DNA from: Escherichia coli
Lineage (GTDB): Bacteria > Pseudomonadota > Gammaproteobacteria > Enterobacterales > Enterobacteriaceae
DNA length: 64,000 nucleotides
Assembly (NCBI RefSeq): GCF_044324785.1
Contig: NZ_CP172127.1
Strand: one strand, 5' to 3'
A model generated the notes under the pieces. The model was not told the origin of the DNA. It did not search any database and saw only the letters and a list, made by a program, of their open reading frames with translations. Shown piece after piece: positions 3,087-30,212 of the stretch; the first letter of the stretch is position 1; every line of letters starts with the position of its first letter. Both the position numbers and the translations under genes were made by a program.

Positions 3087-3162
3087 TGGTGGCCCCTGCT
3101 GGACTTGAACCAGCGACCAAGCGATTATGAGTCGCCTGCTCTAACCACTGAGCTAAGGGGCC
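3087..3162 (-). tRNA. ileX: tRNA-Ile2 (anticodon CAU, lysidine-modified), with encoded CCA
   Basis: Reverse complement reads GGCCCCTTAGCTCAGTGGTTAGAGCAGGCGACTCATAATCGCTTGGTCGCTGGTTCAAGTCCAGCAGGGGCCACCA: cloverleaf with CAT anticodon and 3' CCA. Confidence 0.92.
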
Positions 3163-23943: not shown

Positions 23944-24021
23944 CCGGAAAGCGGTTCACAGATCTCGCTTCGAACCTGGCAGGCCTATTGACGCTGTTGT
24001 TTTTTCAACCTAGAGTAAAGG

Positions 24022-24170
24022 AACAAGGGTAAGGGAGGATTTCTCCCCCCTCTGAATTGGTTGTTAATAAGCCTGGAAACTTACTAGTAACAACACAATC
24101 AGTATGATGACGAGCTTCATCATAACCCTTTCCTTCTATAAGGCCCCTTCCTCGGGAGGGGCTTTCCCGT
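24022..24170 (+). ncRNA. sibE: Sib-type antisense sRNA (antitoxin), copy 1; ends approximate
   Basis: Sigma70-like promoter TTGACG-17-TAGAGT at 23988-24016; transcript would be fully complementary to the minus-strand ibs ORF; hairpin gccccttcctcgggaggggc plus T-rich tail near 24145-24170. The D/E label is positional inference from K-12 order. Confidence 0.6.
24064..24123 (-). CDS. ibsE: Ibs-family 19-aa hydrophobic toxin peptide MMKLVIILIVLLLVSFQAY
   Basis: Reverse complement is ATGATGAAGCTCGTCATCATACTGATTGTGTTGTTACTAGTAAGTTTCCAGGCTTATTAA; classic Ibs peptide; the overlapping plus-strand track ORF is an artefact. The D/E label is positional inference. Confidence 0.75.
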   Translation of the reverse strand: MMKLVIILIVLLLVSFQAY

Positions 24171-24397
24171 TTCAGCTCCTTGCTGACTCCCCGATTGTTG
24201 ATGAGCGCCAGACCCCGCGCAACGCTTTCCCAGAGGCAGTTTTCCTTTCCCCGAGCGGTCACGCAAAACGTTGCAACAGCCTGATCATTTGCACCTTTTA
24301 GCGGAACGCAGATATAAAAAATCCCCGGTTTTTTGGGCCAGGGATATGTGTTAATGAAACCTTCTTGACGCTGTTTTTTTTTCAACCTAAAGTAAAG

Positions 24398-24548
24398 GAA
24401 CAAGGGTGAGGGAGGATTTCTCCCCCCTCTGATTGGCTGTTAGTAAGCGTGGAAACTTATCAGTAACAACACAATCAGTATGATGATGAGCTTCATCATA
24501 ACCCTTTCCTTATACAAGGCCCCTTCTTCGGGAGGGGCTTTCCCGTTT
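24398..24548 (+). ncRNA. sibD: Sib-type antisense sRNA (antitoxin), copy 2; ends approximate
   Basis: Promoter TTGACG-17-TAAAGT at 24366-24394; complementary to the second ibs ORF; hairpin ggccccttcttcgggaggggc downstream. Confidence 0.6.
24440..24499 (-). CDS. ibsD: Ibs-family 19-aa hydrophobic toxin peptide MMKLIIILIVLLLISFHAY
   Basis: Reverse complement is ATGATGAAGCTCATCATCATACTGATTGTGTTGTTACTGATAAGTTTCCACGCTTACTAA. Confidence 0.75.
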   Translation of the reverse strand: MMKLIIILIVLLLISFHAY

Positions 24549-26257: not shown

Positions 26258-27314
26258 GGCTTTGTTGAATAAATCAGATTTCGGGTAAGTCTCCCCCGTA
26301 GCGGGTTGTGTTTTCAGGCAATACGCACGCTTTCAGGCATACCTGCTTTCGTCATTTTGTTCAGCGCTCGTACCAGGGCCATAGCCTCCGCAACCTGACC
26401 ATCGTAGTCACGCAGCGTCAGTGAACCCCCGAACAGCTGTTTTACCCGGTACATCGCCGTTTCCGCTATCGAGCGACGGTTGTAATCTGTTGTCCATTTC
26501 CACCGCGCATTACTCCCGGTCATTCGCTGATTAGCCACTGCACGGTTACGGTCTGCATATTCACCGGGCCAGTAACCCGCACCTTTTCGGGGAGGGATAA
26601 GCGCGCTGATTTTCTTACGCCGCAGTTCATCGTGACATAGCCGGGTATCGTAAGCGCCATCGGCGGCGGCTGACCTGATTTTCCGGTGGGTTTGCCGGAT
26701 TAACCCGGGGAAGGCCTCTGAGTCCGTAACGTTGTTCAGCGACAGGTCAGCGCAGATGATTTCATGTGTTTTACTGTCAACGGCGAGATGCAGCTTACGC
26801 CAGATACGGCGGCGTTCCTGGCCATGCTTTTTGACTTTCCACTCGCCTTCACCGAAGACCTTCAGCCCGGTGGAATCAATTACCAGGTGTGCGATTTCAC
26901 CCCGGGTGGGCGTTTTGAAACTGACATTAACCGACTTTGCCCGCCTGCTGACACAGCTGTAATCCGGGCAGCGTAGCGGAACGTTCATCAGAGAAAAAAT
27001 GGAATCAATAAAGCCCTGCGCAGCCCGCAGGGTCAGCCTGAATACGCGTTTAATGACCAGCACAGTAGTGATGGCAAGGTCAGAATAGCGCTGAGGTCTG
27101 CCTCGTGAAGAAGGTGTTGCTGACTCATACCAGGCCTGAATAGCTTCATCATCCAGCCAGAAAGTTATGGAGCCACGGTTGATGAGGGCTTTATTGTAGG
27201 TGGGCCAGTTGGTGATTTTGAACTTTTGCTTTGCCACGGAACGGTCTGCGTTGTCGGGAAGATACGTGATCTGATCCTTCAACTCAGCAAAAGTTCGATT
27301 TATTCAACAAAGCC
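26258..27314 (-). mobile_element. IS903-group insertion sequence (IS5 family), 1057 bp with 18-bp terminal inverted repeats GGCTTTGTTGAATAAATC
   Basis: Left IR at 26258-26275, right IR (reverse complement) at 27297-27314; length exactly 1057 bp; single transposase ORF; 9-bp TSD as expected for IS903. Confidence 0.93.
26314..27282 (-). CDS. IS903-type DDE transposase
   Basis: 322-aa ORF (TTG start in track) MKDQITYLPDNADRSVAKQKFKITNWPTYNKALINRGSITFWLDD...; lies within the IS boundaries. Confidence 0.9.
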   Translation of the reverse strand: MKDQITYLPDNADRSVAKQKFKITNWPTYNKALINRGSITFWLDDEAIQAWYESATPSSRGRPQRYSDLAITTVLVIKRVFRLTLRAAQGFIDSIFSLMNVPLRCPDYSCVSRRAKSVNVSFKTPTRGEIAHLVIDSTGLKVFGEGEWKVKKHGQERRRIWRKLHLAVDSKTHEIICADLSLNNVTDSEAFPGLIRQTHRKIRSAAADGAYDTRLCHDELRRKKISALIPPRKGAGYWPGEYADRNRAVANQRMTGSNARWKWTTDYNRRSIAETAMYRVKQLFGGSLTLRDYDGQVAEAMALVRALNKMTKAGMPESVRIA

Positions 27315-27323
27315 TTTGCCCAC
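27315..27323. repeat. Target-site duplication TTTGCCCAC (right copy)
   Basis: See left copy. Confidence 0.9.
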
Positions 27324-27491
27324 CTAAACCAGTACGAACAAAAGCTTGCTCTGCCGAAGCGCGACGATAGAGCCTGGCGAAAATAATTCCAATAATAAAC
27401 AGAATGCATACGGCAATAATCGCGGTAAACATCCAGGAGGGCACAGAATTAACAATATCATCCATTATTAAATTTCCTTTTGATTAATAAA

Positions 27492-28121
27492 TTACAATAT
27501 TTGGGGCCAGGGATTGTTTTCCGCCAAATATCGCGTTGCAGAAAGTCGGCAAATAATTAACACTTTGTCTCCTTTAGTGAAAATTTTTCCTTCTTCAGGC
27601 TCCAGTAGTAAATAATGTATTTGGCCAAATTGATCGGTGAGTTTTCCTTCGCAGGGATTACCTGAAGTGGCCTGATGACCGGTAATTAACGCCATGCTAC
27701 CAATATATTCTTCTTCTGTAATAGCTGAACTATGGTCGCGTGGAATCCAGGGCGCAACTATTTTACCGGTATAATGCACCGCAATAATCGTAAACAGTAA
27801 ACTGACAGGAACCACGAACAGGTTCGAAAGTGGTGATTGCCAGACCATGATGCAGGCATGCTGCAACAGGATGCCAATAAGACCAAAAAAACCAGCCAGT
27901 AAGCAGAGAACGACGAGAGCTGGCAATCTTCCGATATTGAGATAATGAAGTGCCTGGCTAATATGACCTGTGGTTATGGAATCATAATGGTCAAGATGTG
28001 CATCAAGAGCACCGGAGAGCATGTGACCGCAGATAAGCGCAAAAATTTCTAAAAGGCCGATCAACAGTACAAAGGAAATAGCGAAAAGATAAGGGGTATT
28101 ATAGTCGGCGAATAAAATCAT
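27492..28121 (-). CDS. yqiJ: NfeD-like inner membrane protein YqiJ (partner of YqiK)
   Basis: 209 aa, multiple TM helices; directly upstream of yqiK on the same strand. Confidence 0.88.
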
Positions 28122-28389
28122 ATGTCACTCCAATGTCCATTTAGTGACGCAATATTTACTTTGGGATAGTTTCCTTGCTTACATTTATCTTTGTTAATAA
28201 TAACACATGTTAGAGAAGTTCTGGAAGAGAAAGTCTTTTAATATGGTTTTTTATTTTTCACTAAAAAGTGTGATCGGGGACAATATATTTACGCACGTTA
28301 TGTTTAAAGGCACTACACTGATTGGGGAATACTGAAATCAGAAAAAGCATATGGCCTTAAAAGGTATGCGATAACCGGAGGATGTGCTT

Positions 28390-28590
28390 ATGGATCATAG
28401 TCTTAATTCTTTAAATAATTTCGATTTCCTGGCGCGTAGTTTTGCCAGAATGCACGCAGAAGGTCGCCCGGTCGATATTCTGGCCGTTACTGGTAACATG
28501 GATGAAGAACATAGAACCTGGTTTTGCGCACGTTATGCCTGGTATTGCCAACAGATGATGCAAACCAGAGAACTTGAATTAGAACACTGA
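28390..28590 (+). CDS. glgS: Surface composition regulator GlgS
   Basis: 66 aa from ATG 28390 [66 protein letters not shown]. Confidence 0.93.
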
Positions 28591-28595
28591 TATTA

Positions 28596-28618
28596 CGGGC
28601 CGTCTGGCCCGTTTTTGT
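28596..28618 (+). terminator. glgS rho-independent terminator
   Basis: gggccgtctggcccg hairpin followed by TTTTTGTGTT. Confidence 0.7.
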
Positions 28619-28624
28619 GTTGCT

Positions 28625-28924
28625 TTATTCTGCTTTATCAATAGGCGGGATAGCCGGAGGAGATTGAAGATCTGCTACCGAATTATTGCGCGCTTCCAGT
28701 TCACTGATGCGCTGCTCTAGTAATGCCAGTTTCTCACGAGTCCGTAACAGGACTTGCGTCTGTACGTCGAATTCTTCGCGGCTCACCAGATCGAGACGCG
28801 TCAGCTGCGCTTGTAGGGTTTGGCGGATTTTTTTCTCCACATCTTCCCCGAACTCCCTGATTCCTTTAGGCATTGATTCGTGAACCTGGCGAGCGATTTG
28901 CTCAATTTTTTTCGGGTCAATCAT
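28625..28924 (-). CDS. ubiK: Ubiquinone biosynthesis accessory factor UbiK (YqiC)
   Basis: Coiled-coil protein [60 protein letters not shown]...; start chosen at the MIDPKK Met, since the track ORF extends further upstream. Confidence 0.85.
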
Positions 28925-29044
28925 TGTAGTTTCCCTGTACTGATAGGTGTTGAGTGCCATTGTAGTGCGATAAGGGTAAGTCATAAACCAGAATTATGTG
29001 AAGCTATGCGTTGCTGCCGCTAATCATTAGCGTTATAGTGAATC

Positions 29045-29290
29045 CGCTTATTCTCAGGGCGGGGCGAAATTCCCCACCGGCGGTAAATCAACTCAGTTGA
29101 AAGCCCGCGAGCGCTTTGGGTGCGAACTCAAAGGACAGCAGATCCGGTGTAATTCCGGGGCCGACGGTTAGAGTCCGGATGGGAGAGAGTAACGATTCTG
29201 TCGGGCATGGACCCGCTCACGTTATTTTGGCTATATGCCGCCACTCCTAAGACTGCCCTGATTCTGGTAACCATAATTTTAGTGAGGTTT
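29045..29290 (+). ncRNA. FMN riboswitch (RFN element) and ribB leader
   Basis: Conserved RFN core AGGGCGGGGCGAAATTCCCCACCGGCGGTAAA...AGCCCGCGAGCGC...CAGATCCGGTGTAATTCCGGGGCCGACGGTTAGAGTCCGGATGGGAGAG directly upstream of ribB. Confidence 0.85.
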
Positions 29291-29297
29291 TTTTACC

Positions 29298-29951
29298 ATG
29301 AATCAGACGCTACTTTCCTCTTTTGGTACGCCTTTCGAACGTGTTGAAAATGCACTGGCTGCGCTGCGTGAAGGACGCGGTGTAATGGTGCTTGATGATG
29401 AAGACCGTGAAAACGAAGGCGATATGATCTTCCCGGCAGAAACCATGACCGTTGAGCAGATGGCGCTGACCATTCGCCACGGTAGCGGTATTGTTTGCCT
29501 GTGCATTACTGAAGATCGCCGTAAACAACTCGATCTGCCAATGATGGTAGAAAATAACACCAGCGCCTATGGCACCGGTTTTACCGTGACCATTGAAGCG
29601 GCTGAAGGTGTGACTACCGGTGTTTCTGCCGCTGACCGTATTACGACCGTTCGCGCAGCGATTGCCGATGGCGCAAAACCGTCAGATCTGAATCGCCCAG
29701 GCCACGTTTTCCCACTTCGCGCTCAGGCTGGTGGTGTACTGACGCGTGGCGGCCATACTGAAGCGACTATTGATCTGATGACGCTGGCAGGCTTTAAACC
29801 GGCTGGTGTGCTGTGTGAGCTGACTAATGACGATGGCACGATGGCGCGTGCACCAGAGTGCATTGAGTTTGCCAATAAACACAATATGGCGCTCGTGACT
29901 ATTGAAGACCTGGTGGCATACCGTCAGGCACATGAGCGTAAAGCCAGCTGA
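29298..29951 (+). CDS. ribB: 3,4-dihydroxy-2-butanone 4-phosphate synthase
   Basis: 217 aa; [42 protein letters not shown]... Confidence 0.96.
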
Positions 29952-29982
29952 AAACCGCTGCTTAATTTACTGCCTTAATCAA

Positions 29983-30020
29983 GAAACCGAAGTTGTAGCA
30001 GGCTTCGGTTTTTATTTTTC
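29983..30020 (+). terminator. ribB rho-independent terminator
   Basis: gaaaccgaagttgtagcaggcttcggttt hairpin followed by TTATTTTTC. Confidence 0.7.
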
Positions 30021-30212
30021 CCTGCTATGTAAGATGTTAATTCCGCTTCTCTTTCTATGAGAAAATTTCATTAATATCAGGCATTCTTTTTCATTATGAT
30101 CAAAATCATATAATTGTTCCGTTATTATGCGACCATATGAATATATCCGAAAAAGGATATGTGAAATTTATGCGCTAAATGTTTAGTATTGTTAAATATT
30201 AAGGGTAAAAGG

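Follow-up and report, generated by a model that had tools for sequence, protein, structure and literature searches.

The leader of ribB in the stretch of Escherichia coli DNA analysed here (64,000 nucleotides in full, hereafter the window) carries at 29046-29306 the FMN riboswitch of this gene, to which we attribute, with a probability of approximately 0.93, a dual mode of switching off that combines translational control and Rho-dependent termination of transcription. The element is already known, publicly annotated and experimentally characterised in exactly this sequence. The riboswitch, to our knowledge the only one for FMN in E. coli, governs a committed step in riboflavin synthesis and acts as an OFF switch, repressing this synthesis at high FMN supply. 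It is also a validated antibacterial target (ribocil, roseoflavin) and serves as a model of how riboswitches direct Rho-dependent termination.

Approximately 260 nucleotides lying between ubiK and ribB constitute a functional RNA, which stays invisible to a track based on open reading frames (ORFs). Three small ORFs overlapping the riboswitch (29128-29274 on the minus strand, 29116-29250 and 29207-29347 on the plus strand) should not be called genes. A minus-strand ORF at 29303-29560, earlier thought to overlap the element, does exist (85 aa, GTG start), but it is located inside ribB and has no overlap with 29045-29290.

Identity of the ribB leader and its genomic setting

The leader and its transcription unit are delimited by the following features.

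29011-29016, plus strand: putative -35 element (TTGCTG) of a sigma-70-like promoter, recognised by inspection
29034-29039, plus strand: putative -10 element (TATAGT) of the same promoter, with a 17-nt spacer and 6 nt before the G at 29046
29046-29194, plus strand: FMN riboswitch aptamer (RFN element), six-helix junction P1-P6, RF00050
29048-29055 with 29185-29192, plus strand: aptamer helix P1, paired in 99.4% of cells across 88 species
29298-29951, plus strand: ribB, 3,4-dihydroxy-2-butanone-4-phosphate synthase, 217 aa, an ORF also annotated in RefSeq; the regulated gene
29982-30021, plus strand: terminator-like hairpin, a 13-pair stem followed by ATTTTT, downstream of the ribB stop codon

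Scanning with covariance models returned a match to the FMN riboswitch family RF00050 at 29046-29194 of the plus strand, covering model positions 1-138 of 138 and scoring 120.9 bits where the gathering threshold is 66.2, i.e., nearly twice that value (E = 8.6e-29 for a 5-kb stretch, 1.1e-27 when all 64 kb are scanned), and this is the sole FMN riboswitch match within the window. The gene that follows 103 nt after the aptamer end on the same (plus) strand encodes RibB, as judged by TIGR00506 (287.7 bits, cut-off 177.45). The preliminary description of this DNA had proposed an FMN (RFN) riboswitch in the ribB leader and an RF00050 scan as the way to check it; the full-length, significant match together with RibB downstream bears this out. 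Mapping of the consensus structure onto the sequence recovers the complete set of six helices, P1-P6, with canonical pairing in 27 of the 28 consensus pairs, the one exception being a G-A pair in P3, a helix that is locally extended by CUUUGGG/CUCAAAG. Bases in the junctions forming the FMN pocket (e.g., AGGGC in J1/2 and GGAUGGGAGA in J6/1) agree with the upper-case consensus in the cmscan alignment, and these junction positions are invariant across 86 related leaders. A sub-threshold match to the AdoCbl-II family at 29124-29192 (22.3 bits, threshold 36.5), which falls inside the FMN aptamer, was treated as a chance one.

The status of the element as a well-known one, also claimed earlier, is confirmed by RefSeq annotation of the same span and by sequence identity to K-12 MG1655. 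The ‘FMN riboswitch’ feature in an O157:H7 record covers these 149 bases as well, its end lying 103 nt ahead of ribB, and the RefSeq label on the match of the leader query couples ‘riboswitch’ with ‘ribB’. Since positions 28925-29330 of the window match K-12 MG1655 with 100% identity, the published biochemistry of the K-12 ribB riboswitch applies to this very sequence. It includes direct FMN binding with Kswitch of approximately 176-206 nM as estimated by RNase H probing (PMC11571811), as well as RBS sequestration and Rho-dependent termination, all reported for the K-12 sequence (PMC11571811, PMC5499598, PMC5234074). Within a collection of complete E. coli genomes queried with 336 bp of the leader (window 28985-29320) it is present in 5425 of the 5426 entries, with at least 99% identity in 5390. 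One genome is without a copy, one has two copies, and one copy resides on a record labelled as plasmid.

The promoter is a putative one, as a strict consensus promoter scan did not list the TTGCTG-17-TATAGT arrangement in its output. The call is supported by the numbering that it entails: with +1 placed at 29046, all landmarks published by Eschbach et al. 2024 (PMC11571811) are reproduced with the right bases, namely C175 (29220), G176 (29221), U181 (29226) and G164/G165 (29209/29210), while AUG appears at +253 and the published 247-249 pause falls into the U run directly before it. The start proposed earlier for the element, 29045, thus stands one base before the inferred +1.

Upstream of the leader ubiK is transcribed divergently (28625-28924, minus strand). 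On the other side of ribB, the hairpin followed by a T run at 29982-30021 marks the end of the ribB transcription unit and is most simply taken as its intrinsic terminator; a sub-threshold match to the small RNA STnc240 (29950-30021, plus strand; 29.1 bits, threshold 55) coincides with this hairpin and was rejected.

Several observations concern the wider neighbourhood. An IS5-like (IS903B-family) transposase ORF (26314-27282, minus strand) interrupts the flotillin gene yqiK after approximately 53 codons, leaving its N-terminal fragment at 27304-27465 (minus strand); the insertion junction (27180-27520) is covered in a single genome (NZ_OW848980.1) out of the 5426 complete ones of E. coli, and the insertion is thus rare and strain-specific. 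At 28121-28924 the genes ubiK, glgS and yqiJ lie next to one another, an arrangement shared with O157:H7, and the fimbrial cluster ygiL-yqiG(IS2)-yqiH-yqiI, which separates ubiK from glgS in K-12, is absent here. Two tandem SIB antitoxin RNAs (RF00113) at 23988-24138 and 24365-24514 of the plus strand (141.8 and 150.2 bits, respectively) correspond to the K-12 type I toxin-antitoxin pair sibD/sibE-ibsD/ibsE beside yqiK. A tRNA gene with CAT anticodon at 3087-3162 (minus strand) was called tRNA-Met by ARAGORN; its location on the map with respect to ribB suggests that it may be ileX, encoding tRNA-Ile2, in which the CAU anticodon carries the lysidine modification.

The ribB leader is catalogued also as SroG, and certain SAM riboswitch transcripts of Listeria are known to function in trans. 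It could be asked whether the terminated leader of approximately 150-250 nt is a stable small RNA acting additionally in trans, given that the name sroG is used in papers also discussing ribB and that the invariant blocks of the platform described below could in principle serve another interaction. We consider such a role very improbable: each of the invariant blocks is explained by complementarity within the leader, and apart from RF00050 the Rfam scan returned no small RNA family at this leader.

Expression platform and its conservation in Enterobacterales

Downstream of the aptamer the following features compose the expression platform, with numbering from +1 at 29046 in brackets.

29202-29215, plus strand: hairpin A (+157-170; CGGG/CCCG in E. 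coli), revealed by covariation
29220-29228, plus strand: CGUUAUUUU (+175-183), 3′ strand of the published anti*-P1 stem (positions from PMC11571811, landmarks matched in the window)
29229-29242, plus strand: hairpin B (+184-197), with a sequence that varies between species, a few of which lack the hairpin
29244-29249, plus strand: CUCCUA (+199-204), a conserved motif in the C-rich rut-like tract, pairing in minimum-energy folds
29253-29261, plus strand: CUGCCCUGA (+208-216), candidate platform strand of anti-P1, from duplex search and conservation
29258-29270, plus strand: CUGAUUCUGGUAA (+213-225), 5′ strand of the sequestering stem, from folds and conservation
29244-29270, plus strand: CUCCUAAGACUGCCCUGAUUCUGGUAA (+199-225), invariant block of 27 nt in the alignment
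29284-29287, plus strand: Shine-Dalgarno (SD) sequence GAGG (+239-242), 10 nt upstream of AUG and enclosed by the sequestering stem
29288-29294, plus strand: run of seven U (+243-249) between SD and AUG
29293-29306, plus strand: UUACCAUGAAUCAG (+248-261), 3′ strand of the sequestering stem, including AUG (29298-29300) and ribB codons 2-3

The related leaders were collected by means of a DNA-pattern scan of one genome per species, exploiting a 43-nt pattern, 37 bases of it fixed, that was derived from the E. coli aptamer (3′ half). It gave 120 loci, in 88 of which, all from Enterobacterales, a ribB start was found 102-251 nt after the pattern. 86 of these ribB leaders were aligned using MAFFT (alignment A1); a second alignment (L-INS-i) comprises 88 unique leaders, that of the window included, re-extracted with CAGGGC as the 5′ anchor. 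Thirty of the 120 loci do not adjoin a close ribB homologue. The aptamer pattern matches exactly in such distant phyla as those of Thermus (loci L020 and L026), Dehalococcoidia (L012) and Thermotogota (L030), which implies extreme conservation of the FMN pocket.

The central structure of the platform is the sequestering stem formed by +213-225 and +248-261, i.e., 13 base pairs with bulged U254 and the folding energy of -14.4 kcal/mol, which appears in every fold and encloses both SD and AUG; an AU-rich spacer separates SD from the invariant block CUCCUAAGACUGCCCUGAUUCUGGUAA. Across 86 enterobacterial leaders the stem is paired in 99.9% of cells; ten of its 13 pairs never vary and the other three vary on one side only, from A-U to G-U. 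Its 3′ strand UUACCAUGAAUCAG is invariant in 86-88 species, and the two ribB codons belonging to it, 2 (AAT) and 3 (CAG), reveal zero synonymous change in 88 species, while synonymous entropy at codons 4, 5, 7, 10-12, 16, 19 and 20 of the same species reaches 1.0-2.0 bits. The frozen state of codons 2-3 is direct evidence of selection at the level of RNA. Based on the extent of this stem, the functional element runs to 29306, nine bases into ribB. The preliminary description had terminated the platform at the ribB RBS, and this boundary has to be abandoned; its 3′ limit of 29290 should be shifted correspondingly to 29306.

Published probing data agree with the 5′ strand of the stem in position, FMN protecting P1 and +215-227 from RNase H; FMN also raises accessibility of +184-193, and polymerase pauses at C175 (29220) and U181 (29226) (PMC11571811). 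The pause region at +247-249 corresponds to 29292-29294 (PMC11571811, PMC5234074).

Two small hairpins preceding the invariant block covary, since all nine of their pairs changed on both sides, and this covariation is real. For hairpin A such changes were registered in all five pairs with 92.1% of cells paired, and none of 500 shuffles reached the observed values (86 species). For hairpin B they were found in all four pairs with 75.4% of cells paired in a somewhat uncertain register, and gaps in the alignment indicate that this hairpin is missing in some species. Taken as a whole, the OFF-state structure of the platform exceeds all 500 shuffles on every measure and is paired in 90.5% of cells, as compared to 33-47% if the register is slid. 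The fold of the whole leader is no more stable than those of shuffled sequences (z = -0.57).

In its base composition the platform (29195-29297) contains 35% T versus 25% for the window, which places it at the 94th percentile of 103-nt windows. U-richness, assigned to the platform earlier, is hence confirmed as moderate, but the excess of C over G is at least as notable and tells more about function: the C/G ratio of the E. coli platform is 1.6-1.9 over +161 to +230, and in 86 of 88 species the platform has more C than G, the median ratio being 1.40.

Hairpin A and the U-rich segment following it invite comparison with intrinsic terminators. In a scheme resembling that of Bacillus subtilis ribD, hairpin A (29202-29215) followed by CGUUAUUUU would stop polymerase when P1 is closed by FMN; the segment CGUUAUUUU is indeed free only when P1 is formed, the published pauses at C175 and U181 sit within it, and hairpin A together with the CGUUAUUUUU tract conforms to a loose terminator rule in 22 of 88 enterobacterial leaders. 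In E. coli itself, however, the terminator-rule scan detected no terminator-like site in 29046-29297, hairpin A has only 4 bp and is separated from the U run by 7 nt, polymerase reads through to +247-249 in vitro and yields full-length 282-nt transcripts in the presence of FMN (PMC11571811), and transcriptional control is lost in a rho mutant (PMC5499598), all of which makes termination of this kind hardly credible for the present leader. Relatives conforming to the loose rule (e.g., loci L014, L015, L022, L037 and L048) might add or substitute intrinsic termination or pausing.

The lack of a terminator-like site, the C over G bias of the platform and the published effect of the rho mutation lead us to assume the involvement of Rho rather than of an intrinsic terminator. 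Beyond the loss of transcriptional control of ribB in a rho mutant, chromatin immunoprecipitation in the rho R66S mutant gave ribB a Rho termination score of 3.1 (PMC5499598). The rut site itself is placed by us within the C-rich tract from composition, which is a proxy.

It may be argued that the riboswitch is translational only, so that mRNA falls as a result of passive attack by Rho and RNases on the untranslated message with no ligand-controlled exposure of rut. Such an interpretation accords with the frozen codons 2-3 and with conservation within the platform being highest, by a wide margin, in the sequestering stem, and it has a precedent in thiM, where Rho termination follows indirectly from inhibition of translation (PMC5499598). 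For ribB, however, the published classification is that of direct Rho control via rut exposure (PMC5499598, PMC11571811), with reference in both papers to the in vitro study of Hollands et al. 2012; FMN- and Rho-dependent termination of the leader in purified transcription free of ribosomes is reported in the literature. FMN, moreover, raises accessibility of +184-193 (PMC11571811), and it is precisely the C-rich stretch +191-216 that is predicted, without FMN, to pair with the aptamer ends. We therefore regard purely translational control as unlikely and retain the dual translational and Rho-dependent OFF switch as the preferred reading.

FMN-free pairing and the mode of switching

For the FMN-free state a stem termed anti*-P1 has been published, in which +141-149 pairs with +175-183 (PMC11571811). 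In the window it is represented by AGAGUAACG and CGUUAUUUU (29186-29194 with 29220-29228), forms in full-length folds and is paired in 91.8% of cells. The text of the same paper gives no coordinates for anti-P1, so the candidate for this helix was located by means of complementarity search. Thus, CUGCCCUGA (+208-216) turned out to form by far the strongest duplex with the aptamer 5′ end (approximately -18.6 kcal/mol), its candidate counterpart being +9-17 (29054-29062), which comprises the end of the P1 5′ strand, J1/2 and the P2 5′ strand. The candidate helix is paired in 98.2% of cells over 88 species and occurs in the minimum-energy folds while the nascent RNA is 222-247 nt long, being displaced once the 3′ strand of the sequestering stem becomes available. 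Its occurrence in these nascent folds agrees with the low FMN affinity published for complexes stalled at +247 (PMC11571811). Judged from complementarity and conservation, +9-17/+208-216 are probably the true coordinates of anti-P1, with odds somewhat better than even.

One more contact is suggested for the motif CUCCUA (+199-204), which is complementary to the core UGGGAG of J6/1 (+135-140, 29180-29185), pairs with it in minimum-energy folds and retains this pairing in 97.7% of A1 cells as compared to 50-65% upon sliding. No published description of this contact was found in the accessible literature, and it may be proposed as a candidate extra anti-aptamer contact. CUCCU was also considered as an anti-Shine-Dalgarno sequence and rejected, being out of register with the SD GAGG by inspection.

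Jointly, the ON-state helices are paired in 93.7% of cells versus 50-65% for slid registers. Covariation was not observed in alignment A1 for any of them (anti*-P1, anti-P1 and CUCCUA:J6/1), as is expected given that one strand of each helix belongs to the invariant aptamer core; for the same reason their support consists of conservation and register only. An apparent compensatory change from A-U to G-C at +143:+181 of anti*-P1 emerged in the L-INS-i alignment only, while A1 gave 60 AU and 16 GU, and was withdrawn as alignment-dependent.

If combined, these contacts may portray +199-225 as a two-handed clamp holding the FMN-free aptamer by CUCCUA on J6/1 and by CUGCCCUGA on the 5′ end, in addition to anti*-P1. 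We offer this picture tentatively and rate it as less probable than the anti-P1 coordinates taken separately. Were it true, a single rearrangement would disable the FMN pocket and hide the C-rich tract on which Rho is loaded, and the sequestering stem would lose 4 bp (8 kcal/mol); it would then be a refinement of the known mechanism and not a new kind of element.

Altogether, the published scheme of switching has the best support and runs as follows. Transcription would start at approximately 29046, and the first 149 nt would fold into the six-helix FMN aptamer. FMN, if bound while polymerase is between the pauses at +175/181 and +247-249, would lock P1 and the aptamer core, leaving +208-225 free, and the 13-bp stem with +248-261 would then bury SD and AUG and block initiation of translation, while the exposed C-rich and G-poor tract of the platform would allow Rho to terminate transcription early. 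Without FMN, the 3′ strand of P1 would be captured by +175-183 (anti*-P1) and the 5′ end of the aptamer by +208-216 (anti-P1), so that the base of the sequestering stem would be removed, the C-rich tract hidden and ribB expressed. Of this scheme, FMN binding, protection of the RBS, the pauses and Rho dependence are known from the literature on this same sequence, while the intact aptamer and its identity, the gene context, the match to K-12, the conserved complementarity of each helix and the lack of an intrinsic terminator come from the present analysis. The exact pairing of anti-P1, the position of the rut site and the opening of the RBS in the ON state are the parts that we infer.

Calculations illustrate both the capacity of this rearrangement and its bounds. 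Capture of +213-216 by anti-P1 removes four basal pairs and changes the energy of the sequestering hairpin from -14.4 to -6.3 kcal/mol, and within +175-216 there are 30 of 42 nt paired in the ON model versus 13 in the OFF model. Still, a residual sequestering stem of 9 bp forms when anti-P1 is enforced, and in equilibrium folding the pairing probabilities of SD and AUG are the same with the aptamer enforced or P1 blocked, the sequestering stem being present in both cases. Since equilibrium folding fails to free the RBS, switching must include a kinetic component that acts during transcription, in line with the arguments in the literature. Overall, the cross-species data lend modest support to the published folding model, contributing slightly new material and leaving the known picture unchanged.

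Relation to known riboswitches

The K-12 ribB FMN riboswitch (SroG) is the same element and not a relative of the one described here: the sequence, the arrangement with divergent ubiK and downstream ribB, the RefSeq span and the numbering all coincide. The riboswitch itself is unchanged between K-12 and this strain, while the surrounding strain background differs. With the FMN riboswitch of B. subtilis ribD (ribDEAHT) the E. coli element has in common the RF00050 aptamer, its six helices, the junction core and the OFF logic in response to FMN; the two diverge in the expression platform, which in B. subtilis operates with an intrinsic terminator and antiterminator (PMC11571811), whereas ribB of E. 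coli relies on the stem sequestering SD and AUG and on Rho-dependent termination.

In its mode of output, ribB resembles the Salmonella mgtA leader and thiC, thiM and lysC of E. coli, in which translational sequestration is likewise combined with Rho-dependent termination and where, as in ribB, a polymerase pause near the start codon closes the window for ligand sensing (PMC5234074, PMC5499598), although the aptamers and ligands of this group differ from those of ribB. Within it, the literature describes direct control over access to rut for ribB and mgtA, in contrast to thiM, for which the action of Rho is secondary to inhibition of translation (PMC5499598).
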